From assembly GCA_946411935.1 (NCBI GenBank), contig CAMKFS010000001.1:1-56015 (forward strand): a DNA stretch of 56,015 nt. Reading direction: 5' to 3'. Source of the DNA: an uncultured Candidatus Saccharibacteria bacterium (GTDB taxonomy: Bacteria > Patescibacteriota > Saccharimonadia > Saccharimonadales > Saccharimonadaceae). The notes beneath the pieces are model-generated. The model ran no database searches, was not told the origin of the DNA, and saw only the letters and a list, made by a program, of their open reading frames with translations. Numbering within the stretch: the first letter of the stretch is position 1; each line of letters starts with the position of its first letter. Below, piece after piece: positions 1,203 to 19,053 of this stretch. The translations under genes were made by a program, and so were the position numbers.

Positions 1203-1210
1203 TTTTCCTC

Positions 1211-2808: not shown

Positions 2809-2837
2809 TTGACTAAAATGCTTATGTGTGCTATAAT
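2809..2837 (+). promoter_or_regulatory. Sigma-70-type promoter, TTGACT-17 bp-TATAAT
   Basis: TTGACT at 2809-2814 and TATAAT at 2832-2837 with exact 17-bp spacing. The ATG at 2847 is 9 nt after the -10 and has no SD, implying a leaderless mRNA. Confidence 0.55.
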
Positions 2838-2846
2838 AGTCTCGTT

Positions 2847-5831
2847 ATGGGCAAGTGTATTAAAAGCATCGCTCTATCTGTTATAACGGCCGTATTTGGC
2901 GTATTAGCACTATCCGGTCCGGTTTTTGCAACCCCGAATACCGCTAATGATAATAATAATGATTCGTCCGTCGTAACTGATCCAACCGATGCAGTCCCAG
3001 AAGACCAAAACGAAACTACCGAAAACGATTCAGAAAATAGCAGTGAAAACACAGAAGAGAATTCAGAAGATTCCGAAACTACTGCTAGTTGTTATGATCA
3101 GGTAGGTAGTCTTGGCTGGATTATTTGTCCGGGCGCCGGTTTATTCGGTAACATCATTGATGGCGCCTATAATATTTTGTCGAACGTAATTGATACCAAC
3201 CCTCTTCCAACAAACGAAGATTCTCCAATTTATATTACCTGGAATTATTTCAAAAACATCACCAACAGCGTCTTCATCGTCTTCTTCTTAATTATCATCC
3301 TATCTCAGTTAACCGGCTTCGGTATCAATAACTATGGCATCAAGAAAGCTCTCCCGCGCATCGTCATTGCCGCAATTCTTGCAAACCTTAGCTATATTAT
3401 CTGTATCCTAGCAGTCGACGTCAGCAATATCCTCGGTACCGGAATCTACGGCATCTTTACTTCTATTCAAAATACCGCAATTGAAAGTGGCGCTATCTCT
3501 AGCGCGGCCACCTCTTCGTCTGTTTCCGCAATTGTCGCTTCATTAATCGGTGTAGGCGCCGCAGGTGCAACCGTCGCCGCTGCCGCACTCACTTTTGGTA
3601 GCGTCGAGGGTATTATTTGGATGCTTCTACCTATCCTTCTTTCTGGCGCCATCGCCGTTATTTCGGCCCTTGTTACAATGGCCGCCCGTCAGGCGCTCAT
3701 CTTTATCTTAGTTATCATTGCACCACTCGCAATCATCGCATACATGCTTCCAAACACCGAAAAATATGCTAAAAAGTGGTTTGCGACACTTTTCCAGATG
3801 CTCGTCTTCTATCCGTCATTTGCCGTCCTTTATGGCGCTTCTCAGCTAGCTGGCCTTGTCATTATTACTTCCGCTACCCATTGGTGGACAGCGCTTCTCG
3901 GTATGGCAATCAAACTTCTTCCACTCTTCCTTTCGATTCCACTTATGCGCATGTCCGGCACTGTCCTTGGTAAGATCGACGGCCTCGTCCATCGCGCAAC
4001 TCACTCCGGTCAAAGCGCCTTCAATGGTCTCATGGGCGGAATGGCTGCCAATGCAAAGAGCAAACAGCTTTCAGGTGTCGGCCGCTTCAGAAACATGCCA
4101 TCCGCACGTCTTGCAAGATATCTCGATCGCAAACGCGCTCAACGTGAATTCGACATAAAAGAGCAGGAAGGCATGCGCAATCAACGCAACAATCTCTACG
4201 CGATGGATAGCTGGAAGAACCGCAATGGTAAATACAACCGACGCGGCATGCAGCATTATCAAAACATCCAGGAGAGCCTTGCTTTAGAGAATAGACGCAT
4301 CAACATCGAGAACGACTTCGACGAAGGCTTTACTGCCAATGATAAACGCGTCCACAAGAATGACCGCGCAAGGGTCAATCGCATTAATCGCGGTTTTGAT
4401 AAAGCTATCGTCGAAAACGAAGCCGTCAATGCTCGCAAGCAAGCCATTAACCTTGCAAATATGGAACATCGCGCTGAGTTAATCCATAAAAACGTCGAAG
4501 ACAAAACATCTGCTATTCATAAGCAAGTTCTTAATACGTTTAACATTGATGCCGCAGAGCTTAACGCAGTAAACGCAAAGCAAGCTGCTTGGGAAAATGC
4601 TACTAAGAAGCAGGAGATCCTCAACAAGCAAGCCGCCGGCGAAACTCTCTCGAACTCCGAAAAAGATTACCTCAAAACTGCTGGTTCTACTCTCACGGCA
4701 GCCGAAAAAGCCGCTATCGCTACTGGCGGTCTCACTGCCACCGAATACGCGCTTTATGATTCTGGTCAAAAGGCAATTAACTCCACGCTTCGTAGCGCTA
4801 TCTCTGCAAAGCGTAAAGTTGACCGCGAAACTCGCAGCAACTATGTCGAACTTTATGACGATTACGAAGCTGGTCCTCGTATTAAAGAGCAGCTCATCCG
4901 CGCCTTTAAGACGAAAGACTACAACTCAATGTCTGCCGCTCTCGAGATTATGTACAAGCGTGGCGATAAGGACGATATTGGTGACGTTCTTGCTAAGTTC
5001 TCTAGCGAAGTCGCCGACGATAAAGATATCCGCTTCCAGAAAGAGCTTAATGATATCTGTCTCACTATGAAGAGTGAGGATATCGACGTCGCACAGTGGG
5101 CAAAGGCTAATATGATGCGCCGCGGCATGAATGGTAAGGGCTTTAAAGTTCAATCATTCATTGATTACGAATCCTGGATGAGGGGCGACACGCTCGCTGG
5201 CGATGCAGTAGAGGGCGAAGATGATTACGGCAAAGTGCGCAAGACTTGCCGCATTGAGCTCGCTAACGCAATGAGTAGCTGGGATCCAATTGCTACCGCC
5301 GACCGTACCATGTGGAATCAAATGCTTGATGCGCAGAAAAACGGCATTCTTACAAAGAATAAAAACGGCGACGAGACTGTTACTGTATATCCAATCAAGT
5401 ATCTCCGCTCTGCAGTCTGTTCTGGTCGTATGGATGGTGAGCGCCTCGAATCATTCAATAAGTGGTTTACTGGTGGCTTTAAACGTGGCGGTACAAACGA
5501 AGATAATGCCTTCTTCTGGGCACACGAAGATGAGTACGTCGAGAATGTCGAGAAGTTCCTTGGCGAAATGTCAGCAAATCAGCTCGGCACACTTAAGACT
5601 GCAACCCTTGAAGCATTTAATAATGTCCTCCTCGAGCACTATGGTGAAAAAGATGAAGATGTCATTATCATAGGCGAAGGCGAGAAAAAGAAGGTCATTA
5701 GTAAATATCTACGCGATGCTCTTGAAACACAGATTACTCAGTTCAATACTGAGAAATCGATGGCAGGCCAGCGTACTGCTATGAACCCAGCCGTTCGCGA
5801 AATGCTTGGCATTAAAGACATCATTAAATAA
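2847..5831 (+). CDS. VirB6/TrbL-like polytopic membrane protein with long cytoplasmic C-terminal domain
   Basis: 994 aa from ATG 2847; the track's GTG at 2826 lies inside the promoter. Signal/anchor, an acidic N/D/E/S-rich tract, 6-7 predicted TM helices (aa ~150-400), then ~570 aa of charged, helix-rich sequence. Position is next to PrgI-like and VirB4 genes. Confidence 0.5.
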   Translation: MGKCIKSIALSVITAVFGVLALSGPVFATPNTANDNNNDSSVVTDPTDAVPEDQNETTENDSENSSENTEENSEDSETTASCYDQVGSLGWIICPGAGLFGNIIDGAYNILSNVIDTNPLPTNEDSPIYITWNYFKNITNSVFIVFFLIIILSQLTGFGINNYGIKKALPRIVIAAILANLSYIICILAVDVSNILGTGIYGIFTSIQNTAIESGAISSAATSSSVSAIVASLIGVGAAGATVAAAALTFGSVEGIIWMLLPILLSGAIAVISALVTMAARQALIFILVIIAPLAIIAYMLPNTEKYAKKWFATLFQMLVFYPSFAVLYGASQLAGLVIITSATHWWTALLGMAIKLLPLFLSIPLMRMSGTVLGKIDGLVHRATHSGQSAFNGLMGGMAANAKSKQLSGVGRFRNMPSARLARYLDRKRAQREFDIKEQEGMRNQRNNLYAMDSWKNRNGKYNRRGMQHYQNIQESLALENRRINIENDFDEGFTANDKRVHKNDRARVNRINRGFDKAIVENEAVNARKQAINLANMEHRAELIHKNVEDKTSAIHKQVLNTFNIDAAELNAVNAKQAAWENATKKQEILNKQAAGETLSNSEKDYLKTAGSTLTAAEKAAIATGGLTATEYALYDSGQKAINSTLRSAISAKRKVDRETRSNYVELYDDYEAGPRIKEQLIRAFKTKDYNSMSAALEIMYKRGDKDDIGDVLAKFSSEVADDKDIRFQKELNDICLTMKSEDIDVAQWAKANMMRRGMNGKGFKVQSFIDYESWMRGDTLAGDAVEGEDDYGKVRKTCRIELANAMSSWDPIATADRTMWNQMLDAQKNGILTKNKNGDETVTVYPIKYLRSAVCSGRMDGERLESFNKWFTGGFKRGGTNEDNAFFWAHEDEYVENVEKFLGEMSANQLGTLKTATLEAFNNVLLEHYGEKDEDVIIIGEGEKKKVISKYLRDALETQITQFNTEKSMAGQRTAMNPAVREMLGIKDIIK

Positions 5832-5848
5832 AACACAAAAACTCCCTG

Positions 5849-5877
5849 AAAAGAGCCGGACTTTCCGGCTCTTTTTC
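5849..5877 (+). terminator. Intrinsic terminator
   Basis: AAAAGAGCCGG / CCGGCTCTTTT stem with a 5-nt loop, running into a T tract, 18 nt after the stop at 5831. Confidence 0.65.
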
Positions 5878-5888
5878 TATTGTGATTA

Positions 5889-5897
5889 TGCTAAAAT
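5889..5897 (+). promoter_or_regulatory. Extended -10 promoter, TGcTAAAAT
   Basis: TGC at 5889-5891 and TAAAAT at 5892-5897. The ATG at 5904 is 6 nt downstream with no SD. Confidence 0.45.
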
Positions 5898-5903
5898 ATA
5901 AGT

Positions 5904-6950
5904 ATGGCTCAGTATAAGGTCCCACAAGATATTGAAGCTGATGATAAGCTCATCGGCCCTTTTAGCTTCCGCCAGTTTGTTTACTTAATTGTCGCTGCGG
6001 GCCTTGGTTTTGTTGCCTTTCTATTTTTTCAGATTTTTCCACTACTAGTTATTATTCCAATCCCATTCATCATCTTCTTAATCGTCCTTGCACTCCCTCT
6101 TAAAAAAGATCAGCCAATGGAGACTTATCTCTCGGCAATTGTAGACTTTTATCTCAAGCCTCAAAAACGCGTCTGGATGCCAGGGCAGGTCGAAAATACT
6201 ATTACAATCACGGCTCCAAAAAAGACTGAAGACAACCGCACAAAAAATCTTAGTCAAGAAGAAGCCGGCCGCCGCCTTTCATTCCTCGCCGATATTGTCG
6301 ATACTGAAGGTTACGCAATTAAAGACTCCAATCTTCGCGACGATATTGCTAGCGAAGCGGCCGCCACACAGGATATTTTCGAAACTAGCCAAACCTTTAA
6401 TATTGATCAGAATCTTGCTAGAAGCACCGAGAATCATCGCGCGCAGGTCGTCAATCAAATGCATACTGCTATTAATTCCGCACCTGCCGCTCCGCAAGCC
6501 GCCGAGCAAACTCCTCAACCGCCAGTTATTTCACCAGCTATCCCGGTCGCAGCTCCAACTCCTACTCCACCGCCGGCGCCAGACATCGAACATAGCGCCG
6601 CCACAATTCTGCCGGACATGAATCAGATTCAAAGTCTTTATTCGCAAGATAATCCTGCCGCAAATGCACTTGATGTCGCCCTAGAGTCAACCGATCCGGC
6701 TAATCCGAAAACAGAAGAAGCTAAACCGGAAACGGAGCCGCAGCCAGAACCAATTCCGCAACCAGAAGTGACATCACAACCAGAACCGGCCCCGCAGCCA
6801 GAGCCAGCACCTCAGCCAGAACCGGACGAAGCGTTAAAGAATCTAGCAAACAATTCCGATTTCTCAATCGAGACTATTGCAAAACAAGCAAAGCGTCTCG
6901 AAGAGAAAAAAGCAAAAGAAGATGGAGAAGTATATATTTCATTACATTAA
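5904..6950 (+). CDS. PrgI/VirB3-like T4SS membrane protein with long Pro-rich C-terminal extension
   Basis: The N-terminus YKVPQDIEADDKLIGPFSFRQFVYLIVAAGLGFVAFLFF plus a second TM matches the PrgI-family pattern as I recall it. The C-terminal ~170 aa are Pro/Glu/Gln-rich (PQPEPAPQPEPAPQPEP). Confidence 0.55.
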   Translation: MAQYKVPQDIEADDKLIGPFSFRQFVYLIVAAGLGFVAFLFFQIFPLLVIIPIPFIIFLIVLALPLKKDQPMETYLSAIVDFYLKPQKRVWMPGQVENTITITAPKKTEDNRTKNLSQEEAGRRLSFLADIVDTEGYAIKDSNLRDDIASEAAATQDIFETSQTFNIDQNLARSTENHRAQVVNQMHTAINSAPAAPQAAEQTPQPPVISPAIPVAAPTPTPPPAPDIEHSAATILPDMNQIQSLYSQDNPAANALDVALESTDPANPKTEEAKPETEPQPEPIPQPEVTSQPEPAPQPEPAPQPEPDEALKNLANNSDFSIETIAKQAKRLEEKKAKEDGEVYISLH

Positions 6951-6959
6951 GGAGTCAAC

Positions 6960-8000
6960 GTGCAACCAAATCAACCAAATCAACCATTAATGCCACCAAG
7001 CGCCGCCCCGCAACCGGCTCCACAGCCGATGCAGCCAGCGCCAACAACGGCAACACCTCAGCCTGCTGCGCCAACCGTTCAGGCTATGTCAACTGCTCAG
7101 CCTATGCCAGCCGCAACCCAGCCAGCTCAAGCAGCTATGCCAACCCCACAAATACAAACAATGCAAGCCCCTCAACAGGCCCCGCAAATGATGCCGTCAG
7201 CTGCTCAGCAGCCACAGCCGGTTCAAGCTGGTGCACGTCCAGCCCAAGCCGCTCAGCCGCAAGCAATGCAGAGCACTTCAACCAATTTGCGCGGCAACAA
7301 CCCAAACTCCGCACAATCAGCCCTCCTTATCTCCGAGCTTCGCGATTCCATGGTTATCATGAAAGACGGCTCTTTCCGTGCTGTAGTTGCTTGTAAGTCT
7401 ATTAACTTCGACCTCATGTCCGAAAGCGAACGTGAAGCCGTCGAGTTTGCTTACCAAAACTTCCTCAACTCCTTAACCTTCACTGTTCAAATCCTAATTC
7501 GCTCCCAGCGCGTCGATATTGCACCATATATCGATCGTTTGCTTGATCTTCGCCGCAAGAATGACAATATGCTTCTCGGCGTTTTGATGGACGATTATAT
7601 CGCCTTCATCGACGAGCTCTCCAAGGAAGCAAACATTATGGATAAGTCGTTCTTTGTCGTTATCCCTTACTATACGACAAAAGAAGCCGAGAAAGCCCTC
7701 GAGCAATCCAAGAACTTCTTCAAAACCTTCACAAAAGACAAAACTCCGCCGGTTACTCGCATCGATCGTGCCACCTACGACAAGGCTGTCACCGAGATGA
7801 ACAACCGCACTGAAGCCGTCATTTCTGGATTATTCCAAATCGGCATCCAATCCGTCCGCCTCAATACAAAGGAACTCGGTCAACTCTACTATAACTTTAA
7901 TAATCCAGACACTGCCGTCCGCGAACCACTCGGAGACTTTAATAAACTCGCACACCTCTACGTAAAGAAGGGAACACGCGATTCAGGGGAGGAGCAATAA
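6960..8000 (+). CDS. Pro/Gln-rich protein whose C-terminal ~220 aa resemble the N-terminal domain of monoderm VirB4 ATPases
   Basis: GTG start with AAGGAG 5 nt upstream. The first ~115 aa are P/Q/A-rich. MKDGSFRAVVACKSINFDLMSESEREAVEFAYQNFLNSLTFTVQILIRSQ then resembles the VirB4 (Tn916 ORF16/CD1110-type) N-domain. The stop is 1 nt before the VirB4 ATPase ORF. Confidence 0.4.
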   Translation: MQPNQPNQPLMPPSAAPQPAPQPMQPAPTTATPQPAAPTVQAMSTAQPMPAATQPAQAAMPTPQIQTMQAPQQAPQMMPSAAQQPQPVQAGARPAQAAQPQAMQSTSTNLRGNNPNSAQSALLISELRDSMVIMKDGSFRAVVACKSINFDLMSESEREAVEFAYQNFLNSLTFTVQILIRSQRVDIAPYIDRLLDLRRKNDNMLLGVLMDDYIAFIDELSKEANIMDKSFFVVIPYYTTKEAEKALEQSKNFFKTFTKDKTPPVTRIDRATYDKAVTEMNNRTEAVISGLFQIGIQSVRLNTKELGQLYYNFNNPDTAVREPLGDFNKLAHLYVKKGTRDSGEEQ

Positions 8001-8001
8001 T

Positions 8002-9792
8002 ATGGCAAAGAAACAGAAACAACTCAGCGCCGCAGATATCGCTGCGCAAGCTCAGCTTCAAGAAGAAGTTGAAATTCAGCGCGCGTTTGAAACCGGTATT
8101 ACTACGCTTCGCGATCTTATCTCGCCTTCAAGCCTCGAATTTCAGACCGACCATTTCCGCATTGGCACAAAATATGGACGCACAATCTATATCTATGGCT
8201 ACCCACGTGAACTCTATACTGGTTGGCTTAGCTCGATCATCAACATGGATGAAGTTCTGGATGTATCAATGTATATTTATCCAGCCGATTCTGCTGTCAT
8301 TATGAAAAACCTCACTAAAAAGGTTACTCAGCTCGAAGCGTCCATGGATATTAATAGCGAAAAAGGCAAAGTCCGTGACCCTGAGCTTGAAGCTGCCATC
8401 TCCGATGCTGAGGAACTCCGCGATCAGCTTCAGGTCGGCGCCGAACGCTTCTTCCGTTATGCGCTCTATATTACTATCTACGCAGATTCGCTCGATGAGC
8501 TTCAGTTTGTCCAGCACAAAATCGAAAATATCTTCGGTCAGCAAATGGTCTACACCAAGGTCGCCAGTTCGCAGCAAGAGCAGGGCATGAATAGTACGAT
8601 GCCGCAGTGTAGCGATCAGCTCCAAATCCGCCGCAACATGAATACAGGCGCTATCTCGACGAGCTTTCCATTCACTTCCGCAGACCTTACGCAGGAAAAA
8701 GGCATTCTTTACGGCATCAACATGCACAACAACGGCCTTGTAATTTTCGATCGCTTCTCCCTAGAAAATGCTAACATGGTCGTCTTCGCAAAATCTGGTG
8801 CAGGTAAATCCTATACTGTTAAGCTCGAAGCGCTTCGTTCAATGATGGTCGGAACCGAGGTCCTCATTATCGACCCAGAAAACGAGTATCAGAAACTTGC
8901 TGATGCCGTTGGCGGCTCCTATATTCGCCTTAGCCTCAACTCCGACGTCCGCATTAATCCATTCGACCTTCCAAAAGTTGTCGATGCCGAAGATGCCAAT
9001 GACGCACTCCGCGCTAATCTCGTTACGCTACATGGCCTCTTCCGCCTCATGCTTGGCGGTGGCGTTCTCAGCCCAAATGAAGAAGCGGATCTTGACCAAG
9101 CACTTATTGATACTTATGCTCGTGTTGGTATTACGAGCGATCCACTCACTCATACTGCACCTCCTCCAACCATCATTAATCTTTATGATACTCTCGAGCA
9201 TATGGGCGGTACTGGTCACAGTCTCGCACAGCGCCTCCGTAAATATACGACTGGTACATTCGCAGGTATCTTCTCTCAACAATCGAATATCGAAATTAAT
9301 AACCAGATGGTCGTCTTTAATATTCGCGACCTCGAGGACGAATTGCGCCCAGTTGCAATGTATATCGTCTTGAACCATATTTGGAATATTACTCGCGCCG
9401 ATCAACGCAAACGTATGCTCATCGTTGATGAGGCCTGGCAGCTAATGAAATACGAAGATTCAGCAAGCTTCCTCTTTAGCCTCGCAAAACGCGCCCGTAA
9501 ATATTATCTCGGCCTTACAACAATTACACAGGATGTTGAAGATTTCATGTCATCAAAGATGGGTCGCGCAATTGTTTCAAACTCATCCATGCAGCTACTT
9601 CTTAAACAATCCGCCTCTGCGGTCGACGTCTTGTCTGACGTTTTCAAACTTACAAACGAAGAGCGCAAACGTCTTTCAAGCTTCCCAGTCGGTCAAGGTC
9701 TCTTCTTTGCTGGCCAAAACCACGTCCATATTTCTATTGTCGCCAGCAATACTGAAGACGCCCTTATTACCACTAATCCAGGTGGCCAATAA
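8002..9792 (+). CDS. virB4: VirB4-family T4SS ATPase (ATPase portion)
   Basis: 596 aa. Walker A is FAKSGAGKSYT and Walker B is MLIVDEAWQL. The upstream segment LISPSSLEFQTDHFRIGTKYGRTIYIYGYPRELYTGWLS is typical of Gram-positive VirB4/PrgJ-type proteins. GGGGAGGAG SD. Confidence 0.8.
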   Translation: MAKKQKQLSAADIAAQAQLQEEVEIQRAFETGITTLRDLISPSSLEFQTDHFRIGTKYGRTIYIYGYPRELYTGWLSSIINMDEVLDVSMYIYPADSAVIMKNLTKKVTQLEASMDINSEKGKVRDPELEAAISDAEELRDQLQVGAERFFRYALYITIYADSLDELQFVQHKIENIFGQQMVYTKVASSQQEQGMNSTMPQCSDQLQIRRNMNTGAISTSFPFTSADLTQEKGILYGINMHNNGLVIFDRFSLENANMVVFAKSGAGKSYTVKLEALRSMMVGTEVLIIDPENEYQKLADAVGGSYIRLSLNSDVRINPFDLPKVVDAEDANDALRANLVTLHGLFRLMLGGGVLSPNEEADLDQALIDTYARVGITSDPLTHTAPPPTIINLYDTLEHMGGTGHSLAQRLRKYTTGTFAGIFSQQSNIEINNQMVVFNIRDLEDELRPVAMYIVLNHIWNITRADQRKRMLIVDEAWQLMKYEDSASFLFSLAKRARKYYLGLTTITQDVEDFMSSKMGRAIVSNSSMQLLLKQSASAVDVLSDVFKLTNEERKRLSSFPVGQGLFFAGQNHVHISIVASNTEDALITTNPGGQ

Positions 9793-9807
9793 TCAAAGCC
9801 CTTATCG

Positions 9808-9836
9808 TCGACATTTACGCCTAATTATTATATAAT
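9808..9836 (+). promoter_or_regulatory. Promoter, TCGACA-17 bp-TATAAT
   Basis: TCGACA at 9808-9813 and TATAAT at 9831-9836. The ATG at 9846 is 9 nt downstream with no SD. Confidence 0.45.
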
Positions 9837-9845
9837 TATGGTGAT

Positions 9846-12635
9846 ATGTCAGCCGACGAAACAGGTCAAAAATATCGGCAAGCACACGATCCATATAATG
9901 ATATGGAAGAGGCGGTTATTCGCCCAGCAAACATTGCTCGCCAAGAGCTTTCTGATGCCGAAGAAAATGCCGTAAAGCAGCCAAGTGCTAGCTCTAATTC
10001 TGATCGCTCATCTTCGTCTGACAACTCCAGAAATTATCAACGCCCATCCGACCGCGCCATCAATGCGCTGAATACTTTCGAGAAGAATCAGCTTAGCCAC
10101 ACTTTCCGCAATTCTGTTCGAGGCAACAACCGCAAATCATCTTCAAAAGTAACTACCAAAAACCAAAAAGGAGGATTTCTAAAACGACGTCTCGCCCCAA
10201 TTAGCTTAATTGCTTCGCTTCTTATTGGTGGCGGCGCCTTTTTCTACTTCACTCAATCATTTCTAGGCCCTCATCTTTCTAGCCTTTATACGAGTGCAAC
10301 CGACATCCAATTCACTTCATACAATTCACGCAATCAGCGCATCTTTAAATACATGCTCGACGGCGGCGATCAGGTAAAAATTAGTAAATTCTCCAAAAAA
10401 TACACAACTTTTTCTCCATATCTACAAAACCGACTCAAGAAAAACGGCATTGAGGTAGGCAAGATTGATGCTGATGGAAATTTTAAGTCAGGCTCGTTAG
10501 TTTCCACTTCAAAAACCGTCCTCAAATATAATGACGAAATAATCGACGCAAACTCTTTCCAAAACAAATTCGCTAGCGATGCTAATTTTCGCGACGCCTA
10601 TTATAAGGCAAAACGCGGGCGCATCGCCGGATTCTTTGATGATTCCGCCGACTATTTTTACAAAAAGAAGGGCGCCACTCGTGATATTTTTGATAAATAT
10701 CAATCTACCGGCGACGCCGAAGCAGACAAACAAAATTTCCAAGATATTGTTTCCGATCGCGTAACTGGCACCGAAGCCGACATTAACACTGTTAGTCATA
10801 CCAAAGACGAAGACGGGAACGATTCTGCCGCAAAAAATGGCGATGACGTTCAAACGAAAAACATCGTCGGCGACACCCCAGAAGCAAAAGCCCGCACAAT
10901 GGTTAATAATATTGCAGGTAAAGTTTCTAATGCGGGCGTCCCAATCTGCTCCGCGCTCCGCATCGCAAACATGGCAGCTGTCACCGTATCAGCCTATCAA
11001 ATCTTTCAATCAATTTCTTATTTCTTAAGTCTCATGGAACCAATCAGCAAAATGATGGCCGGAGAAGGGGATACTTCCGCCGTTAACGAAACACTTAACT
11101 TCCTTACTACCGAAACAAACAATGATGTTCAATACGTTGATTCTAGCGGCTCATCAACCACGAAAAGCGTTTATGGCTCACCCCTTCAATCGAGTGGCGC
11201 AAAATTAGTGCTTGGCGATACTCCATCATCATCCGAAGAAGTCGCTCCATATTCAATTAAAAACATCACTCGCGCCGCAACTACCATCGCAGTCAGTACT
11301 GGCGCAACCAACACAGTCTGCGACGGCGTAATGGCTGCTTCAGCTGTTATGTCACTCGCCTCGAACGCGGTTCCTGGTGGCACCCTCGCAAAATTTGTTG
11401 TTAGCGCCGTCGCTCAAACCGTTGGCGGTATTGCGCTTACCGGAATTGTTGCCGCAGTCGTTAATACCATCATTCCATATGTTGCAAAAATGTTTGCCAA
11501 TAATCTCTTCGAAAACTACACTGGTATTCCTGCCGGCGAGCAGTTTACTCAAGGCGCCGCAAGCTCCAACTTTAAACTTGCCACCCAATCAAGCGCTTAC
11601 ATGCCCGCTTCCGAAGATTACATAAAAGAACAGAATCGCCAAACCACCGTCGCTCTTGCCCAAGAAGCCGAAGTAGACCGCAGCAACCACGGCCCATTTG
11701 ATGCCTCCAATCGCCACACTTTCCTCGGTTCGCTTTTAACTAAATTCGCATTCCTTTCTCATTCAAACGGAATACTGAGTCAGGTATCAAACTTCGCAAC
11801 CACTTTAACCAACTCTCTAAATATCTTCAATCCAGCCGCCTCCGCCTATGACGAAGAAATATCCTATACTTCAAATTACAGCGATTGTACTAATGCGCTT
11901 TCCGATACAGTCTGCGAAATGTATGACCAAGAAATTGTAGCTATGGATTATTCAACTATCGACTTAAGTCCAGATGATCCAACCTATGTTTCTGTCATTG
12001 AGCCAAATCTTGACGACAACGGCGACATCAGAGAAGATTCAGAACTAGCAAAATTCATTAATGTTTGTACGGAGCGTGAGTCTCCATGGGGCGTAGTAGA
12101 TGCTGGCATCATGAACGCTCTTCAAACCGATCTCGGAATCGTCGGGAATAATCTCCCAATCATTAACGATGCAATCGATATTATTAACGCCGCAGAGGAT
12201 ATCGCAAACAGGCCTTGGGGAACTGGTGAAAACTGTAAAATGTCGAAAGAAAACCCTCGTTGGGATACAGAATTCAAATACTATCAACGCTACATTGAAG
12301 ACATGCGCATTATTAGTGGCATGGATGACGAAGAAGATTCTAATCCGGTCCTCGCTTATAAAAATAACTATTATGATAAACACCCACTTGATAACTCTTT
12401 CACTGGCACGCTTGCACGTATTTCTGGCCAATCTAAGGACGATATCGCATTCTTAATGGAATACGTCAATTATTCTACAAAAATCGCAAACTACAACCCA
12501 TCCACTCGCTTATCATTTATAGGACAATCTGAGGCAAAACATATTTCCTTCACCGAAGAAACAATGCCAGAAGCCATCGCATTCGTTGCTAAACAGCCAG
12601 AATTATTTATCGATCGAAGGAACTATACTGTATGA
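9846..12635 (+). CDS. Large membrane protein of unknown function, paralog A (paralog B at 36393-39626)
   Basis: 929 aa. Polar, Ser-rich N-terminus, a TM helix at aa ~118-140, Ala/Gly/Val-rich hydrophobic segments at aa ~480-560, and a conserved C-terminal ~330 aa shared with the 1077-aa ORF. Confidence 0.6.
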   Translation: MSADETGQKYRQAHDPYNDMEEAVIRPANIARQELSDAEENAVKQPSASSNSDRSSSSDNSRNYQRPSDRAINALNTFEKNQLSHTFRNSVRGNNRKSSSKVTTKNQKGGFLKRRLAPISLIASLLIGGGAFFYFTQSFLGPHLSSLYTSATDIQFTSYNSRNQRIFKYMLDGGDQVKISKFSKKYTTFSPYLQNRLKKNGIEVGKIDADGNFKSGSLVSTSKTVLKYNDEIIDANSFQNKFASDANFRDAYYKAKRGRIAGFFDDSADYFYKKKGATRDIFDKYQSTGDAEADKQNFQDIVSDRVTGTEADINTVSHTKDEDGNDSAAKNGDDVQTKNIVGDTPEAKARTMVNNIAGKVSNAGVPICSALRIANMAAVTVSAYQIFQSISYFLSLMEPISKMMAGEGDTSAVNETLNFLTTETNNDVQYVDSSGSSTTKSVYGSPLQSSGAKLVLGDTPSSSEEVAPYSIKNITRAATTIAVSTGATNTVCDGVMAASAVMSLASNAVPGGTLAKFVVSAVAQTVGGIALTGIVAAVVNTIIPYVAKMFANNLFENYTGIPAGEQFTQGAASSNFKLATQSSAYMPASEDYIKEQNRQTTVALAQEAEVDRSNHGPFDASNRHTFLGSLLTKFAFLSHSNGILSQVSNFATTLTNSLNIFNPAASAYDEEISYTSNYSDCTNALSDTVCEMYDQEIVAMDYSTIDLSPDDPTYVSVIEPNLDDNGDIREDSELAKFINVCTERESPWGVVDAGIMNALQTDLGIVGNNLPIINDAIDIINAAEDIANRPWGTGENCKMSKENPRWDTEFKYYQRYIEDMRIISGMDDEEDSNPVLAYKNNYYDKHPLDNSFTGTLARISGQSKDDIAFLMEYVNYSTKIANYNPSTRLSFIGQSEAKHISFTEETMPEAIAFVAKQPELFIDRRNYTV

Positions 12636-14410
12636 AAAAAATAATTATCAGCTTCTTTGCCGCTCTCATGTTTTGTCAGCCGGTTTTTGCCACAATTCCA
12701 AGCGATAATATTCTCGATTATTTCGACAAAAACGGTATTTACTATTACAACCCCGACGGCAGCAACGATCTCTGCAATTCGTCAGCCACTACCTTGGCCG
12801 GCTCCGATGTTCCTGAAAAAATTTGGAATTTCTACATTAGTGAAGGCTTTACTGATGCCCAAGTGGCCGGCATTCTCGGAAATGGCATGGCAGAAACCGG
12901 AAACGAACCAACCCGCGCAAGCAACTCTACTTATTGGGGTCTCTTCCAATGGAGCTATGGTCGCAAAGAAAAACTCTTCGCAAAATTCCGCGAAGCCGGA
13001 CTCGAGAAATACACCTCTTCTGAATATTGGGGCGTTGGCGGCTATAAGAAAATTCCAGAAGCCGACCTCGATAATCTCCTTAGAATTGAGTTAGAAGATA
13101 CCCTTACTGATAATTTATTTGATTGGCAAGGTGAATTAAAGAAACAAAACCAACCTGAAGCTGCTGCAGAAGTATTTCTAACACTATTTGAACGCGCCGT
13201 CGGCGGCTCTGATACGATCATTTATTACGCACCATTTGTCGGTGTAAAATACCAAGCCGCAAGCAAGCGCCGCGAATACGCACGCGAGTATTACGACAAA
13301 TACTCTGGAAAAGGAACCGTTTCTAGCGGTAGTACAAATGCTGCCGAAAATGGTAAAAATTTGAGCATTATTGGCGACTCTATTACTTATGGATCCACAA
13401 TCCAAATTCTCGAAAAATTCTCAGATTTATCCTCTGACAATATTAATGCTAAAAATGGTCGCTCTTGGAAAGAGGGAATTGAAATTGCTAAATCCACAAA
13501 CCTAAAAGATAATGTAATTTTTGCGCTTGGAACTAACTCCCGGGATTTAACTGATGCTCAAATTAGTGATGCTATAAACGCAATTGGCACAAACAAGAAA
13601 ATCGTTTTCGTTACTAATTACAGCAAATCAAATAGCGAAACCTACGATAGTAATAATGAAAAATTCCTCAGCTTTGCAAAGAAAAACTCAAATATTATCG
13701 TAGCGGACTGGAAAAATACTGTTAATAAAAATCCAGACACTTATATGGCCGACGACGTCCATCCAAACGATGCCGGTAAAACTCTTTTTGCCGAAACTCT
13801 CTATGACGCAATTAATAGTAATACTAACGAAAATGGCTGTAGTGTAAGCGGAGAATTCACTTCGCTCGTCAAAGCCTACGCTTGGCCAGAATACCACAAA
13901 GCCCCATTTACTAATCGTATGCCTGATTACGCCGAAGCAGTTACAACTTCAATTAGCGAAGGCCGATACGTTGGCGGTTCCATTAATGGCGTCCCAGGTA
14001 TTGACTGCGGCGGCTTCGTTACGATTCTCGCTCAAAATTCCGGACTTGCCTCCGATTATAACGACACAAAAGGTAACACTGATACTCAAGAAAGCTGGGT
14101 AAAAAGCCATAACTGGACACTTCTAAACTCATCAACATCAACGCCAGTTGACACCAGCATTCTCCAAGCTGGCGATGTCGCTTTCACTAACGGACACACC
14201 TTTATTTATGTCGGAGAAATTGAAGGCTTTGATTCGAATATCGCATCCGCATCCTACGGCAACAGTTCCGCTCGCGCACCTATGGCAGGACACGAAAGTT
14301 TAATTTCCGGTAATGGTACTACCGTTCGCTGGTATCGTAAACCAGATTTTTCAACTAATAACGGTACTTCATATAAAACAAATTTAGAGAATAAAGTCTA
14401 TGGCAAATAA
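12632..14410 (+). CDS. Secreted three-domain cell-wall hydrolase: lysozyme-like + SGNH esterase + NlpC/P60- or CHAP-like peptidase
   Basis: Signal peptide. AGILGNGMAETGNEP...WGLFQWS is a phage-tail-lysozyme-type motif. SGNH blocks are IIGDSITYGS, FALGTNS and DDVHPNDAG. The C-terminus has GIDCGGFV (Cys) and GDVAFTNGHTFIYVG (His). The start overlaps the upstream stop (ATGA). Confidence 0.7.
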   Translation: MKKIIISFFAALMFCQPVFATIPSDNILDYFDKNGIYYYNPDGSNDLCNSSATTLAGSDVPEKIWNFYISEGFTDAQVAGILGNGMAETGNEPTRASNSTYWGLFQWSYGRKEKLFAKFREAGLEKYTSSEYWGVGGYKKIPEADLDNLLRIELEDTLTDNLFDWQGELKKQNQPEAAAEVFLTLFERAVGGSDTIIYYAPFVGVKYQAASKRREYAREYYDKYSGKGTVSSGSTNAAENGKNLSIIGDSITYGSTIQILEKFSDLSSDNINAKNGRSWKEGIEIAKSTNLKDNVIFALGTNSRDLTDAQISDAINAIGTNKKIVFVTNYSKSNSETYDSNNEKFLSFAKKNSNIIVADWKNTVNKNPDTYMADDVHPNDAGKTLFAETLYDAINSNTNENGCSVSGEFTSLVKAYAWPEYHKAPFTNRMPDYAEAVTTSISEGRYVGGSINGVPGIDCGGFVTILAQNSGLASDYNDTKGNTDTQESWVKSHNWTLLNSSTSTPVDTSILQAGDVAFTNGHTFIYVGEIEGFDSNIASASYGNSSARAPMAGHESLISGNGTTVRWYRKPDFSTNNGTSYKTNLENKVYGK

Positions 14411-15311
14411 GAAAAAGAGTTTTCCAAAAAATTTAAAAATTAGAATTGCTCTAGTAGCCAGTCTTCTCGCAATTATTATCATCTATTCAGTCGCCACACT
14501 AATTTATCGAGCAGGGAAAACCAGAGTATTTATCCAGATAGCTCCAAATGACGCCGTCATAACATTAAACGACACTCGTGTTGGTAATAAAAGCGAGTGT
14601 TGGCTCACTCCGGGGAATTATCACCTCGTCGCCACGAGTAACGAACATCTTGCGGTTTACGAACGAGATTTTGAAGTTAAAAACGAATCATTAAAAATTT
14701 ATGCCACTCTTAGTGCTATTGATGATGAAGGAAAAGATTTCATCGAAAAACATCGCCAAGAATACGCTGTAGTTGAAGGCTTAATTGGCGACCAGTTAAA
14801 TAGCGAGGGCGAAAAGGAACGCGAAGCAAACCCTATTCTTAATCATCTTCCAATTAATAACTCGCTTTATTCGATTAGCTATGAATATGACAATAATAAT
14901 CAATTAATAATCAATATAAAGTCCGAACTAAAATATCTCGATGTTGCTGTAGAAAAATTAAAAACCTTCAAAGATGTAAGTATTAGCTCTCTAAACATCG
15001 TTTTCCACAGTAAAAATACTTTTGAACAATTTAATGACAACGATAATTCAGACATAATCCAATTCATTAAAACCGCCTACAATTTACCTAATAATTACAA
15101 AATAAATGAAATTAAACAGTTAAATGACTATTATTACACGACGGTATATATTGATGACTATAATAATAACCTCCAATATGCTCACTACCGAATTATTCTG
15201 AAACAAAAAGGCGAGAGCTGGGAAGTGATCTCAAGCCCTCAACCAATCCTCACTACTTTTAATACACCAAACGTCGCTAAAGATATTCTCGATATTATAA
15301 ATTCATATTAG
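14400..15311 (+). CDS. Membrane-anchored protein with PEGA-like domain
   Basis: 303 aa. N-terminal TM helix IALVASLLAIIIIYSVATLIY, then VFIQIAPNDAVITLNDTRVGNKSECWLTPGNYHLVATSNEHLAVYERDFEV (PEGA-like pattern). Very AT-rich and Asn-rich. Overlaps the upstream gene by 11 bp. Confidence 0.4.
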   Translation: MANKKKSFPKNLKIRIALVASLLAIIIIYSVATLIYRAGKTRVFIQIAPNDAVITLNDTRVGNKSECWLTPGNYHLVATSNEHLAVYERDFEVKNESLKIYATLSAIDDEGKDFIEKHRQEYAVVEGLIGDQLNSEGEKEREANPILNHLPINNSLYSISYEYDNNNQLIINIKSELKYLDVAVEKLKTFKDVSISSLNIVFHSKNTFEQFNDNDNSDIIQFIKTAYNLPNNYKINEIKQLNDYYYTTVYIDDYNNNLQYAHYRIILKQKGESWEVISSPQPILTTFNTPNVAKDILDIINSY

Positions 15312-16320
15312 CCGTCATATTAGTAGGGATATTCGTACTTGTTATGATCATCTGATAATTGCGGAAATTTTTCACGAGATGTTTTTGGCGCATTTCATCC
15401 AACTCAGAAAAAATATCATCAAGCAAAACTACTGGCGCTTTTCCAGTTTCACTCTCTAGAATTTCCGCCTCAATAAACTTCAGTGCGAGAATTATACTTC
15501 GCATCTCACCGCGCGACGCCGAACCATCCGCATCATTTCCATTAAAACAGAATTTATAATCATCCCGATGCGCGCCAAAAGTCGTATAACCAAGAATTCT
15601 ATCCCGCTCAAAATTTCTATTTAATTCAGCTAAATATTTGTTTTCATCAACTTTTTCACCAGTATATTCGATTCTACATTCATCGTTATTTTTTGCAATT
15701 TCTCGATAATTATTCGACATTTTCTGGTTAATCTTATCGATTATATCTATTCTTATCTTCTTTAATTCTGATCCGTATTGAGCGCATAATACATCCCACG
15801 AAAACAAATCATCCCGCGATAATTCTTCCTGTTTTAATAAATCATTTCTTTGCTTAATTGCTTTATTATAACGACTAAGAGCAACCGAATAATTATTATT
15901 AATCTGTTTAAACAATTCATCAAAATAATCCCTTCTCCTCGACGGAGAAGATTCAATTAAATAAATATTATTTGGCTCAAATAATACCACCGGATAACGA
16001 TCTTTTTTAGGTAGTCGAATTGATTTTTTACCGTCTATTTCAAAACTCTTTTTATCGTTCTTAGCATCATACCTAATAATCACTTTTTTTGCGTCATATA
16101 AGTCAATTTCCGCCCTATAAAAATCACTTTCATGCAACACAATATCACGATCAACCGCTCGAAAGCTTTTTCCGCGCAAGGCTAAATAAATCGCCTCTAA
16201 TACTGAAGTTTTTCCGCTGCCGTTTTCGCCAATTATTAGTGTCGTCGGGCGATTACAATCAAGCTCAAAAACATCATGACAACGATAATTATTTAACTTA
16301 ATTTTTTGAATAATATTCAT
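15295..16320 (-). CDS. recF: DNA replication/repair protein RecF
   Basis: Walker A GENGSGKTSVLEAI, signature GEMRSIILALKF and Walker B VVLLDDIFSELD. Synteny is dnaA-dnaN-recF. Confidence 0.85.
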   Translation of the reverse strand: MNIIQKIKLNNYRCHDVFELDCNRPTTLIIGENGSGKTSVLEAIYLALRGKSFRAVDRDIVLHESDFYRAEIDLYDAKKVIIRYDAKNDKKSFEIDGKKSIRLPKKDRYPVVLFEPNNIYLIESSPSRRRDYFDELFKQINNNYSVALSRYNKAIKQRNDLLKQEELSRDDLFSWDVLCAQYGSELKKIRIDIIDKINQKMSNNYREIAKNNDECRIEYTGEKVDENKYLAELNRNFERDRILGYTTFGAHRDDYKFCFNGNDADGSASRGEMRSIILALKFIEAEILESETGKAPVVLLDDIFSELDEMRQKHLVKNFRNYQMIITSTNIPTNMTANMNL

Positions 16321-17423
16321 TAGCTCTTGAGCGGCATAATAATATGCGTATAATCATCATTTTTAATATTCTTAATTACAACCGGCGACAGTTTTCCAGA
16401 GAAGCAAAACTCCACCTCATCCTCAGTCGTCGCATTCAGAGCATCAAGTAAATATCGCGAATTTAACGTAACTTTACTATCTTCTTTAACTTCCGCTTCC
16501 ATTGCAGCCGAGTTTTCTCCTAGTTCACTCGCTACTGCCGAGATACTAAAGCTTCCTTCATCTTTCTTCGCTTCACACACCACCGAACCATTCGACTCAC
16601 GCGCAAACAATGCCGCAACTTTTGTCATTCTAATAAGTTCAGCCTTATTCAACTTTACATTCGTCTTATCATTTTTTGGAATCAATTGTCTATAATCAGG
16701 GAAGCTTGCATCAATTAGTTTAGAAGTAACTTCAATTTCTCCCATTCTAAATTGAATTTGAGAATCAATAATCATTACTTCTATTTCTTCTATACTATCT
16801 GAAATCGAACTCAAAACTTCACGTAACGCAGCAGTCGGAATAATTGCTTTAATTTCACTTTTTACATTATCCACAAACTTTTTATCCGCTAAACGATAAC
16901 CATCAGTTGCAGCGATATATAGTGAATTTTCAAAAGTATTAAAGAATACACCGGTAAGGGCAGGGCGAGTCGTATCATTACTTGCTGCAATAATTACCTG
17001 ATTAACTGATTCTTTAAAAATTTCAGTAGGAATCTTGAATGCTACCGCATTATTTTCATCAATTGTTGGAAGTTCTGGAAAATCATCAGCCAAAATACCA
17101 TTAATAATAGATTTATATTTTCCAGCCGAAATAGTTAATTTTTCACCATCCACTTTCAAACTAACTGTTTCTTTTGGAAGATTAGAGATAAAATCTGCTA
17201 ATAATCTTGCTGGAACAGTAATAGTTCCTTCTTTTATTACTTTCGCATTAACAAATTCTACTGTAGCTAATTCTAAATTTGTCGCAGTTAAAACTAATTG
17301 TTTACCTTCTGCTCTTAATAGAACATTACTTAGAATTGGTAAGCCCGCTTTTGTACTTGCTGCTACACGACTCACTATACTTAGTGCTTTTGCGAGTCTT
17401 TCTTGTAAAACCTCAACTTCCAT
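16320..17423 (-). CDS. dnaN: DNA polymerase III beta sliding clamp
   Basis: 367 aa with a typical DnaN N-terminus (LAKALSIVSRVAASTKAGLPILSNVLL...LVLTATNLELA). Lies downstream of dnaA. Confidence 0.9.
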   Translation of the reverse strand: MEVEVLQERLAKALSIVSRVAASTKAGLPILSNVLLRAEGKQLVLTATNLELATVEFVNAKVIKEGTITVPARLLADFISNLPKETVSLKVDGEKLTISAGKYKSIINGILADDFPELPTIDENNAVAFKIPTEIFKESVNQVIIAASNDTTRPALTGVFFNTFENSLYIAATDGYRLADKKFVDNVKSEIKAIIPTAALREVLSSISDSIEEIEVMIIDSQIQFRMGEIEVTSKLIDASFPDYRQLIPKNDKTNVKLNKAELIRMTKVAALFARESNGSVVCEAKKDEGSFSISAVASELGENSAAMEAEVKEDSKVTLNSRYLLDALNATTEDEVEFCFSGKLSPVVIKNIKNDDYTHIIMPLKS

Positions 17424-17676
17424 TTTTCCTCCTTTTTAGAAATTCCTTATATAAATAGTAATAGTAGTAGATCTATGTGGAAAACGTGTAAAACTTTCAT
17501 TTAATAGATAAAAAAATGAATTAATGTATGTTAAAAATAGTTGCGAAAAACTACTCAAAACTCGCTTAAAATTAACATGGCTGTAGAACTTATTCACAGT
17601 TTTATTTTTATCCACATTCAATATTAACGATTTTTGCCCACACTTTTTTACATTATTATTAACAATTTTTCCACAA
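17424..17676. promoter_or_regulatory. oriC segment (dnaA-dnaN intergenic) with DnaA boxes
   Basis: TTATCCACA at 17608-17616 (perfect), TTATTCACA at 17590-17598, TTTTCCACA at 17667-17675, TGTGGAAAA at 17476-17484 (reverse). AT-rich stretch at ~17500-17590. Confidence 0.65.
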
Positions 17677-19053
17677 CTAAGCATAAATCTTACCCTTTAA
17701 TTCGGAAACTTGTTCACGGAGAGCGAAATCCTCTTTTAATCTCTTATCTACCATATTTATACCGTGGATAACTGTTGAGTGATCTTTGCTTAATTCTCTT
17801 CCAATCTTTGTAGTGCTAAGACCTAACTCTTTATTCATAAGATACATCGCTACTTGGCGCGCATTTTTGATATCTTTTATGCGGCTTTTTCCGAGAATAT
17901 CTTTTGAATTTAGATTATAATATTTAGCTACTTTATCTATTACGTGCTTTAGGGAAATATGACGAGTGCTACTTTGGGCAATAGGTGTCATCTGATCTAT
18001 AACTTCACTAGTAGAAACATGATTCATTTCGGCTAGGAGAAGAATACGGTTTAAGGCGCCTTCTAGATCGCGAATATTAGTATTGAAGTTTTCTGCAAGA
18101 TATTCAACGGTAGTGTTATCGATTTCTCCACCAAGTATTTCGGTTTTTGCTTTAAGAATTGCGCAACGTGTCTCGAAGTCTGGCAATTGAATATCGATTG
18201 CAACACCCATCGTTAAGCGACTAGCTAGACGAGTATCCATTTCTTTAATTTCATTTGGTAAGCGATCGGAGGCAACAATTACCTGCTTACCGTTTTCATA
18301 GAGCTCATTAAAAGTATGGAAAAATTCGCTCTGAGAAGCATCTTTTCCTTGGATGAATTGAAAATCATCCACAATTAATACATCGAGCTTGCGATATTTA
18401 TCTTGGAATCCATCTTTCTTTGTGCGCATTGCAGTAACAAAGTCGTGATAAAATTCCTCGACTGTTACATAAAGAATCTTAAACTCTGGGTGCAATTCCT
18501 GTAATTTATTACCGATTGCTTGAATAAGGTGAGTTTTACCAAAACCAGATCCACCATAAAGAAAGAATGGGTTATAACGCATGCCTGGCATCTCGATAAT
18601 AGAGTGAGCGGCGCTGACTGCTAAATCATTATTACTACCAACGACGTAATTGTCTAGAGTATAGCGAGGATTAAGCTTATTTTTATTCGCTGAAAAAACA
18701 GGCGTAGGCATACCTCGATCAATGAAAGGCTGAGCAGTGGAGGTAGTTGATGTGGCATTATTGCTGCCAGGTAGAATTTCCACTGGCCTACGTACTACAG
18801 AATTAGACTGATTGTCGGCGACGATAATCTTATAATCCTCACAATCATAGCCTGCTGCTTTTAATGCGGCGAGCACCTTGCTCCGATACTTTTTATCCAC
18901 AGTAGACTGAGCAAAAGTGTTCTTTACTGAAAAAGTTACAATTCCATCTTTTTCGGAGACGAACTTTGTATCGACGAAATAAGTATTGAAGGCCATATCA
19001 GTGACATTGCTTTTAATTTCATCTAAAACAGTTTGCCACTTATTTAACATCAC
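17677..19053 (-). CDS. dnaA: Chromosomal replication initiator DnaA
   Basis: AAA+ Walker A GGSGFGKTHL, Walker B LIVDDFQF and a C-terminal DnaA-box-binding domain (ARQVAMYL...DHSTVIH). AGGAGG SD. The start is GTG at 19053 or ATG at 19050. Confidence 0.95.
   Translation of the reverse strand: MMLNKWQTVLDEIKSNVTDMAFNTYFVDTKFVSEKDGIVTFSVKNTFAQSTVDKKYRSKVLAALKAAGYDCEDYKIIVADNQSNSVVRRPVEILPGSNNATSTTSTAQPFIDRGMPTPVFSANKNKLNPRYTLDNYVVGSNNDLAVSAAHSIIEMPGMRYNPFFLYGGSGFGKTHLIQAIGNKLQELHPEFKILYVTVEEFYHDFVTAMRTKKDGFQDKYRKLDVLIVDDFQFIQGKDASQSEFFHTFNELYENGKQVIVASDRLPNEIKEMDTRLASRLTMGVAIDIQLPDFETRCAILKAKTEILGGEIDNTTVEYLAENFNTNIRDLEGALNRILLLAEMNHVSTSEVIDQMTPIAQSSTRHISLKHVIDKVAKYYNLNSKDILGKSRIKDIKNARQVAMYLMNKELGLSTTKIGRELSKDHSTVIHGINMVDKRLKEDFALREQVSELKGKIYA

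Follow-up and report, generated by a model that had tools for sequence, protein, structure and literature searches.

The window analysed here, 56,015 nt from the forward strand of contig CAMKFS010000001.1 of an uncultured Candidatus Saccharibacteria bacterium, contains two genes for giant membrane proteins, designated A and B. Their open reading frames (ORFs), of 929 and 1077 aa, lie where a preliminary description of this DNA had placed them (Table 1). The left part of the window is the origin-proximal type IV secretion system (T4SS) cluster of Patescibacteria, followed by recF, dnaN and dnaA on the other strand and then by rnpA and yidC. This cluster has been described previously (PMC12102498) and is essential for epibiotic growth in Southlakia epibionticum ML1, as determined by transposon sequencing (Tn-seq) (PMC10633639). 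The role of the saccharibacterial T4SS has been called completely unknown by the field (PMC11665869), and for the genes after virB4 a 2025 survey mentions no more than "peptidase and lysozyme homologues" (PMC12102498). A is situated between the VirB4 and wall hydrolase genes of the T4SS locus, and on this point the domain map agrees with the preliminary description. B is situated outside the cluster, with opposite-strand genes on both sides.

BLASTP comparison of A and B reveals a C-terminal high-scoring segment pair (HSP) of 124 bits (E = 8e-33, 29% identity over 321 aa) and a second, N-terminal HSP (E = 2e-12 over ~480 aa). The four collinear C-terminal motif pairs from which the two proteins had been described as dispersed paralogues all fall inside the first HSP, in the same order, and the match is significant in a proper alignment of the pair. 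An alignment of 74 sequences (48 A-type and 26 B-type) contains 31 columns that are invariant in both subfamilies. Three family-averaged hydrophobic peaks, at A residues 114–142, 360–394 and 486–556, occupy the same aligned positions in A and B. On the basis of the HSPs, invariant columns and hydrophobic peaks, A and B are real paralogues, collinear along their whole length.

When 1.84 billion representatives were searched exhaustively with the family profile, 1,690 clusters (at 50% identity) matched with E ≤ 0.001, and 924 with E ≤ 1e-30. Scored with separate A and B profiles, the best 150 fell cleanly into 61 A-type and 89 B-type sequences, with no intermediates. The duplication that generated A and B is old, and B is a widespread subfamily in its own right. 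All named homologues are hypothetical proteins from Candidatus Saccharibacteria or Nanosyncoccaceae metagenome-assembled genomes, mostly from animal guts, and the family has so far been seen only in Saccharibacteria; a tblastn search of 72,556 plasmids (PLSDB) revealed no relative of A. Both types are present on one contig in three other cases (P0009/P0137, P0011/P0147 and P0065/P0151), and in the two pairs with NCBI locus tags these are 105 apart, read as ~21 genes. In every case B is further from its counterpart in the window, with 44–46% identity as against 57–69% for A.

The A-type neighbourhood was compared across 77 loci from a genome scan and eight from a metagenome scan, all A-type by score. 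Linkage to VirB4 is near-universal: the A-type gene lies directly after VirB4 in 72 of the 73 loci with upstream flank, and the order VirB6-like, PrgI, TrsD, VirB4, A persists in loci whose identity to A ranges from 85% to 27%. The sole exception, L048, has no VirB4, TrsD, PrgI or VirB6-like gene upstream and carries minus-strand genes there instead, an arrangement which implies that the T4SS cluster is split in that genome. It retains the 4-nt overlap between A and the hydrolase gene, with recF-dnaN downstream. The same check on the B-type subfamily gave the opposite result, as none of 71 B-type loci lies beside VirB4, and VirB4, TrsD and PrgI are absent within 10 kb of every one of them.

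Downstream, in 61 of 63 evaluable loci, the stop codon of the A-type gene and the start of the gene that follows overlap by 1, 4 or 7 nt. In the window, the ATGA at 12632–12635 comprises the TGA of A and the ATG of the hydrolase gene. Seven of the eight downstream partners sampled encode a peptidoglycan glycosidase domain (Phage_lysozyme2 or Glucosaminidase), the eighth having no Pfam match; the variable additions to these hydrolases are GDSL, NlpC/P60, CHAP or 3D domains. The link to the downstream hydrolase is tighter than that to VirB4, and through the overlap A is translationally coupled to the hydrolase gene. Relatives of the 303-aa membrane protein encoded after the hydrolase were detected by tblastn in many A-type loci.

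The preliminary description regarded both genes as monocistronic-looking, with the same promoter geometry. A is not monocistronic, because its stop codon overlaps the hydrolase start in nearly all loci; B may well be, given its opposite-strand flanks. The geometry (TATAAT, 9 nt, ATG) is real for both A and B, but it also precedes the ORFs at 2847, 23404, 46478 and 51023, and because it is general in this genome it says nothing specific about the pair. At least six long ORFs have a TATAAT box 8–10 nt ahead of their ATG (2832–2849, 9831–9848, 23389–23406, 36378–36395, 46464–46480 and 51009–51025), which suggests that leaderless or near-leaderless mRNAs are common in this Saccharibacterium. The promoter-like site upstream of A is a possible internal promoter of a sub-operon comprising A, the hydrolase gene and the gene for the 303-aa protein.

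An AlphaFold2 (AF2) model of A built on the alignment of 74 sequences has a predicted local distance difference test score (pLDDT) of 67 and a predicted template modelling score (pTM) of 0.69. It runs from a disordered polar N-terminus through a transmembrane (TM) helix to an alpha/beta domain (residues ~140–310) and a long helix (364–404), and then through a beta-hairpin region and poorly packed helices (489–551) to a well-predicted, mostly helical C-terminal domain (pLDDT 80–93). The N-terminal motifs LSxAExxA and FRNSVxG are common to the A and B subfamilies and may hint at a common cytoplasmic partner, perhaps VirB4 or TrsD. In the Ala/Gly/Val-rich region, where a small beta-hairpin region lies between the helices, C368, E398, K402 and C492 are invariant; the hydrophobic cluster of B includes several charged residues. 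The C-terminal domain has invariant residues at R612, P617, D619, C741, R744, D752, C797, W806 and D819, two conserved cysteine pairs, and two loop hot-spots (residues ~725–735 and 822–828) that are sites of enzyme insertion in relatives.

Longer relatives align to A on either side of such an insertion. The insertion near residues 725–735 is a GDSL-type acylhydrolase in P0257 and an unassigned module of ~150–225 aa in each of P0163, P0066 and P0109. Near residues 822–828 there is a CHAP domain in P0080 and P0032, and a metallophosphoesterase in P0287. With the M15-like tail of the ML1 protein described below, five kinds of hydrolase are attached to one scaffold. Peptidoglycan is the substrate of CHAP and M15 domains. 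The C-terminal domain is probably extracytoplasmic, a location favoured because of the hydrolase inserts and the paired conserved cysteines. Simple transfer of a domain between neighbours (a 'Rosetta stone' pattern) was rejected, as the hydrolases beside insert-bearing A-type genes are not shorter and no clear pattern emerged.

The preliminary description recognised no known domain in either protein, and the sensitive profile and structure searches now made lead to the same result. A, B and 16 relatives gave matches in Pfam, NCBIfam and PHROGs only to the inserted domains, with no credible match to A or B themselves. The family profile had no match among all PDB sequences even at E ≤ 10. Foldseek searches with the AF2 model of A found nothing at E ≤ 0.001 among 350,542 PDB chains or in BFVD (best E = 0.41). 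The top PDB match, the alpha-pore-former SmhA, has a non-significant E of 1.4, and a pore-forming function is thus unsupported.

Other candidate identities were rejected on similar grounds. The proteins resemble phage tape-measure proteins in their ~1000-aa length, largely helical character, Gly/Ala-rich segments and embedded lysozyme or peptidase modules, and the 'phage tail lysozyme' domain of the adjacent hydrolase also recalls phage tails. They differ in having an N-terminal membrane anchor and, for A, a place in a cellular T4SS operon, and neither PHROGs (0 families) nor BFVD (none at E ≤ 0.001) contains a match. Assignment to VirB6/TrbL fails in that PF04610 has no match in A, B or the 16 relatives, BLASTP against the 1001-aa VirB6-like protein of the same locus gives E > 2, and the VirB6-type core of at least five strong TM helices is replaced by one strong TM helix plus weak Ala/Gly-rich helices. 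A VirB8-like identity, that of a bitopic protein with an NTF2-like extracytoplasmic domain, found no support in the AF2 model of A, which matched no PDB structure at E ≤ 0.001, although low-confidence parts of the model could hide a small domain. Homology to TraF of pSK41 received an hhalign probability of 0.1%, with sensitivity limited by the single-sequence template.

Neighbouring genes were clustered for the 71 B-type loci. The commonest neighbour is the lipoprotein-like gene, which is downstream in 25 of 63 loci and for whose product an inhibitor or immunity role is conceivable. Upstream, the family of ~200-aa membrane proteins is present in 17 of 52 loci, and a lectin-tagged lysozyme-like protein in 12 of 52, the window included. 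The mechanically called ORF for the ~200-aa protein in the window (35709–36524, minus strand, 271 aa, GTG start) overlaps the start of B, and its homologues have 195–200 aa. The true start is likely to be an ATG near 36311, which would leave a divergent promoter region of ~80 nt. In 20 B-type loci the setting is one of housekeeping genes, with aquaporin upstream and pheS downstream, followed where the flank allows by pheT, ftsEX and a PcsB-like gene. A cutinase + VWA protein is encoded directly upstream in four loci. In three loci (L087, L092 and L120) a VirB6-like giant lies directly upstream on the same strand, and in two more it lies within a few genes; these giants have a weak TrbL match (E = 0.0026) and tblastn similarity to the VirB6-like protein of the window.

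A hydrolase gene is directly downstream of B-type genes in at least five loci. The B-type gene overlaps the downstream gene by 4 nt in L110, L134, L100 and L142. In L110 (Phage_lysozyme2 + GDSL + CHAP) and L134 the overlapping partner is a Phage_lysozyme2 hydrolase, in L100 it is a CHAP protein, and in L142 it is an ORF of 455 aa that has no annotation. A family of ~250-aa proteins (c27) is encoded after the downstream gene in B-type loci L100, L110 and L146, and after the hydrolase in A-type loci L137, L139, L153 and L160. Because the overlaps and c27 are common to A-type and B-type loci, the ancestral unit looks like a giant membrane protein gene with an overlapping muralytic gene and a gene for a small protein, duplicated once. 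The A copy would then have stayed with VirB4, while the B copy seems to have drifted and swapped partners. The duplicated module of A or B, hydrolase and c27 is visible in other lineages; within the window, A/B and the pilins are the only paralogues, and duplication of a whole module there was rejected.

Some B-type loci show further variation. L125 (10001–16000) contains two tandem B-type genes, of 921 and 959 aa. The B-type gene of L123 and L124 is enlarged (1187–1294 aa), and after it come two small paralogous ORFs and a ~1900-aa giant ORF (c50), which also occurs near the B-type gene in L087.

The lectin-tagged neighbour of B in the window has an N-terminal domain of ~300 residues that is 53% identical to that of the neighbour in L078, whose repeats are Ricin-B. 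This domain, for which 251 homologues were detected in Saccharibacteria and Actinobacteria (Microbacterium and Geodermatophilus), is always fused to interchangeable tails: LGFP, Ricin-B, FG-GAP/VCBS, ChW or CW_binding_2. It has no match in Pfam or among PDB sequences. Its AF2 model has a pLDDT of 93, and the first 50 Foldseek matches, none of them significant (best E = 0.055), are almost all glycosidases of the lysozyme superfamily (SagB, AtlE, LytB, g-type lysozymes, MltC/E/F, FlgJ and Tse3). K143-E144 is invariant across the family. A lysozyme-like, muralytic activity is regarded as likely. Actinobacteria are the host phylum of Saccharibacteria, and the domain may be a host-derived or host-targeting muramidase. 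The eight LGFP repeats (33350–34750, minus strand) include near-identical protein copies, such as the recurring 'FESRGKIREVWEKQKYEMGPLGFPVSNISENKNTGIIFQQYQNGYIVGND', and look like a recent expansion.

A closely comparable gene has been reported in S. epibionticum ML1, where SEML1_0007 (cluster SEML1_0006–0019) encodes a 'hypothetical' protein of 1113 aa between VirB4 (SEML1_0008) and a lysozyme/cysteine-proteinase hydrolase (SEML1_0006), with whose gene it overlaps by 7 nt. Its Tn-seq class is GD/ES/ES, and its sole annotated domain is M15-like (Hedgehog/DD-peptidase), at residues 951–1105 (PMC10633639). A occupies the same slot near recF-dnaN-dnaA and is similar in size and in its hydrolase overlap, but lacks the C-terminal M15-like domain. 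A paralogue of SEML1_0007 has not been reported, and the aquaporin/pheS site of ML1 did not reveal one; searches through Dus, Ricin/LGFP and pheS/aquaporin neighbours and shared AlphaFold database matches identified no B-type gene in S. epibionticum. Within the literature searched, no paper was found that names SEML1_0007 in its text.

The gene order of the window is also that of pSK41, namely VirB3-like, TrsD, VirB4, the membrane protein TraF/TrsF, a CHAP hydrolase and the small membrane protein TrsH. A is the positional counterpart of TraF/TrsF (pIP501/pGO1/pSK41, MPF-FATA), which is itself without an assigned function. TraF/TrsF has 426 aa as against ~1000 for A, and homology between them is not detectable.

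The remaining features of the window are listed with A and B in Table 1. The ORF preceding VirB4 is TrsD-like and not part of a split VirB4 (NCBIfam; PMC12102498); the first ~110 aa of its product are nearly all Pro, Gln, Ala and Met. The PrgI-like protein has 348 aa, and the Pfam domain spans residues 5–91 only. The VirB6-like gene probably starts at the ATG at 2847 and not at the GTG at 2826. The three divergent tandem VirB2-like pilins agree with the pilin arrays reported for Saccharimonadia, and one 218-aa product, with two matched stretches, apparently has a duplicated pilin domain. GC skew is about -0.2 from the T4SS cluster to dnaA (window 1–18000) and near zero over 18000–56015, a change that is consistent with a replication origin near 18–19 kb. 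A LytR-CpsA-Psr protein (21578–23371, plus strand) has a sub-threshold N-terminal match to 'mobile element protein CD1107-like' (E = 7.9e-5; 23 bits, where the cut-off is 26). To our knowledge, this family is otherwise known from conjugative transposons, near CD1110-type VirB4.

Table 1. Features of the window, with the basis of each assignment (T4SS, type IV secretion system; TM, transmembrane)
Feature	Position	Strand	Basis
Array of three VirB2-like T4SS pilin genes	810–2670	-	Pfam PF18895, PF04956; mutual paralogy
VirB6-like polytopic giant, 1001 aa, counterpart of SEML1_0011	2826–5831	+	At least six strong TM helices; synteny; PMC10633639 Table S2
PrgI/VirB3-like	5904–6950	+	Pfam PF12666, E = 2.4e-14
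TrsD-like (resembles VirB4 N-domain)	6960–8000	+	NCBIfam NF041427, E = 6e-9, below curated cut-off; PMC12102498
VirB4-type ATPase, CD1110 family	8002–9792	+	NCBIfam NF045971, E = 4.6e-116; Pfam
Promoter-like site TCGACA-17-TATAAT, 9 nt before ATG of A	9808–9836	+	Consensus match only
A-type gene, 929 aa, giant membrane protein of T4SS cluster	9846–12635	+	ORF and translation; position of SEML1_0007
Strong TM helix, A residues 114–142, preceded by K/R-rich stretch; kept in both subfamilies	10185–10271	+	Kyte-Doolittle; alignment
Weakly hydrophobic Ala/Gly/Val-rich helices, A residues 360–556 (360–394, 486–556)	10923–11513	+	Hydropathy; alignment; model
C-terminal domain, A residues 557–900, conserved, mostly helical, holding the four motifs	11514–12545	+	pLDDT 80–93; invariant residues
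Secreted wall hydrolase, Phage_lysozyme2 + GDSL-like + NlpC/P60-like	12632–14410	+	Pfam; signal peptide; ATG overlaps stop of A
303-aa single-pass membrane protein, last gene of A-hydrolase operon	14400–15311	+	Start overlaps end of hydrolase gene; tblastn
795-aa secreted protein, ~300-aa N-domain + eight LGFP wall-binding repeats, divergent from B	33350–35737	-	Pfam LGFP
~200-aa single-pass membrane protein between LGFP protein and B	35709–36311	-	Conserved B-type neighbour
TATAAT box 9 nt before ATG of B, in divergent intergenic region	36378–36383	+	Sequence match
B-type gene, 1077 aa, paralogue of A outside T4SS cluster	36393–39626	+	BLASTP against A; A/B profile split
Lipoprotein-like 286-aa protein, convergent with B; dus beyond	39688–40548	-	Lipobox LVGC; no Pfam match

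The preliminary description envisaged a channel, scaffold or translocated substrate in the position of A, and of these a scaffold is the most plausible. The reading tentatively preferred here, to which we give a little less than an even chance, is that A and B are membrane-anchored, extracytoplasmic platforms that partner with the envelope-degrading enzymes of the epibiont's T4SS. It is preferred because of the VirB4 linkage, the hydrolase overlap, the corresponding overlap, Tn-seq class and M15-like domain of SEML1_0007, the loop inserts, the hydrolase neighbours of B-type genes and the shared N-terminal motifs. The polar N-terminus would lie in the cytoplasm, with the one strong TM helix as an anchor, and the C-terminal domain outside the membrane would bind or position a secreted peptidoglycan hydrolase. 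The wall, the epibiont's own and possibly also that of the host, could then be opened only where the T4SS and pilus are built. A would act within the VirB4 cluster together with its coupled hydrolase, as a fixed subunit or an assembly factor. B would do a similar job with enzymes encoded by its neighbours, such as lysozyme-like/lectin proteins, Phage_lysozyme2 hydrolases and cutinases, and in some lineages also with an adjacent second VirB6-like protein.

The proposed principle, in which a membrane protein positions a secreted muralytic enzyme, is that of SpdC-SagB, FtsEX-PcsB/CwlO and pIP501 TraM-TraG, although the sequences and folds of these proteins are unrelated to those of A and B. In pIP501, the VirB8-like TraM contacts the hydrolase TraG. 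VirB8-like proteins are reported to be absent from Saccharibacteria (PMC12102498), which leaves room for a non-homologous replacement.

Several points weigh against a platform. The topology, the contact with a hydrolase and the role in T4SS assembly or in breaching the host envelope are parts of the model that we infer, and a topology with two or four TM helices would place the C-terminal domain in the cytoplasm. If its task were simply to tether a hydrolase, a conserved core of ~900 aa would be large, so that it probably does more, and most family members have no enzyme insert. No B-type locus is near VirB4, and 20 are in the aquaporin/pheS housekeeping setting. The muralytic assignment of the LGFP protein is weakened by the lack of a significant Foldseek match (best E = 0.055). 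Finally, A is regarded as the orthologue of SEML1_0007 by position, length and gene overlap only, not by sequence.

A and B might instead be divergent T4SS channel subunits, analogous to VirB6 or extended VirB6 proteins, with the Ala/Gly helices lining a pore and B serving as an alternative subunit. The slot held by A, between VirB4 and the hydrolase, is that of the VirB6 analogue in elements of the Tn916/ICEBs1 type. Like VirB6 and its extended forms (F TraG, Rickettsia RvhB6a-e), A and B are large membrane proteins of ~1000 aa with big hydrophilic domains; in Rickettsiales, moreover, VirB6 is present as several dispersed paralogues (PMC12857230). Invariant Cys, Gly and Pro residues occur in the hydrophobic cluster, which is conserved, and in L087, L092 and L120 the gene directly upstream of the B-type gene encodes a VirB6-like giant. 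A channel nevertheless appears unlikely. VirB6 proteins have at least five strong TM helices where A and B have a single strongly hydrophobic segment, and the cluster in B contains charged residues. No similarity was found to the VirB6-like protein of the locus, to Pfam TrbL or to any PDB structure, and there is no similarity of fold. In addition, the cluster already encodes a polytopic VirB6-like protein as a separate channel candidate (2826–5831), and that of S. epibionticum encodes two (PMC10633639).

The lineage-specific hydrolase modules (CHAP, M15-like, GDSL and metallophosphoesterase) would also suit exported, host-directed effector or translocon carriers, whose Ala/Gly helices would enter the host membrane with the enzyme inserts as warheads. 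Where both share a genome, B is the faster evolving (44–46% identity, against 57–69% for A), the small lipoprotein gene convergent with B in 25 of 63 loci could be immunity-like, and the weak hydrophobic helices recall those of pore-formers such as SmhA, the non-significant top match (E = 1.4). However, the strong N-terminal TM anchor and its K/R-rich cytoplasmic flank are kept in both subfamilies, the inserts lie within the protein and are lacking in the majority of members, no tape-measure or toxin match is present in PHROGs or BFVD, and the gene is essential, not accessory, in S. epibionticum. Exported carriers are on balance improbable.

Equally hard to credit, at about the same low level, is a general function in envelope morphogenesis, in which A and B would regulate autolysins in the manner of FtsEX-PcsB or SpdC-SagB and adjacency to the T4SS would reflect no more than origin-proximal gene order. 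This would account for B-type genes never lying beside VirB4, for their frequent polysaccharide or housekeeping settings, including the 20 loci where ftsEX and a PcsB-like gene follow within a few genes, and for the A-hydrolase pair without VirB4 in L048. Against it, the A-VirB4 linkage persists from 85% to 27% identity, some B-type loci contain VirB6-like paralogues, and the paired hydrolase is a VirB1-like lysozyme plus peptidase, typical of monoderm T4SSs (PMC12102498). Still less probable is a reading in which the family supplies the missing component of an epibiont 'feeding' T4SS that crosses the envelope and contacts the host, and so would be a new kind of subunit. Hydrolases for wall, lipid and phosphoester substrates, borne or recruited by the extracellular C-domain, would bore through the envelope of the actinobacterial host, the Ala/Gly-rich helices would enter the host membrane as a conduit, and B-type proteins would be host-range variants that work with various lectin-tagged enzymes.

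Earlier publications already cover the cluster, the fact that it is essential and the presence of a gene in this slot. What appears to be new, within the literature searched, is the family as defined here, its division into two ancient subfamilies, the near-universal coupling to a glycosidase gene, the loop insertions and the B-type neighbourhoods. With the mechanism still at the stage of a proposal, the value of these results is mainly for specialists in candidate phyla radiation (CPR) biology and in T4SSs. The A-type gene is the largest unassigned gene of a T4SS cluster essential to epibiotic growth, in a secretion system without recognisable VirB8-, coupling- and relaxase-type parts. The hydrolase coupling, the lineage-specific inserts and the second subfamily provide testable handles on how cell walls are opened by these ultrasmall bacteria, which live on other bacteria, at the host interface, and the B-type subfamily suggests that parts of the apparatus may be encoded outside the canonical cluster.

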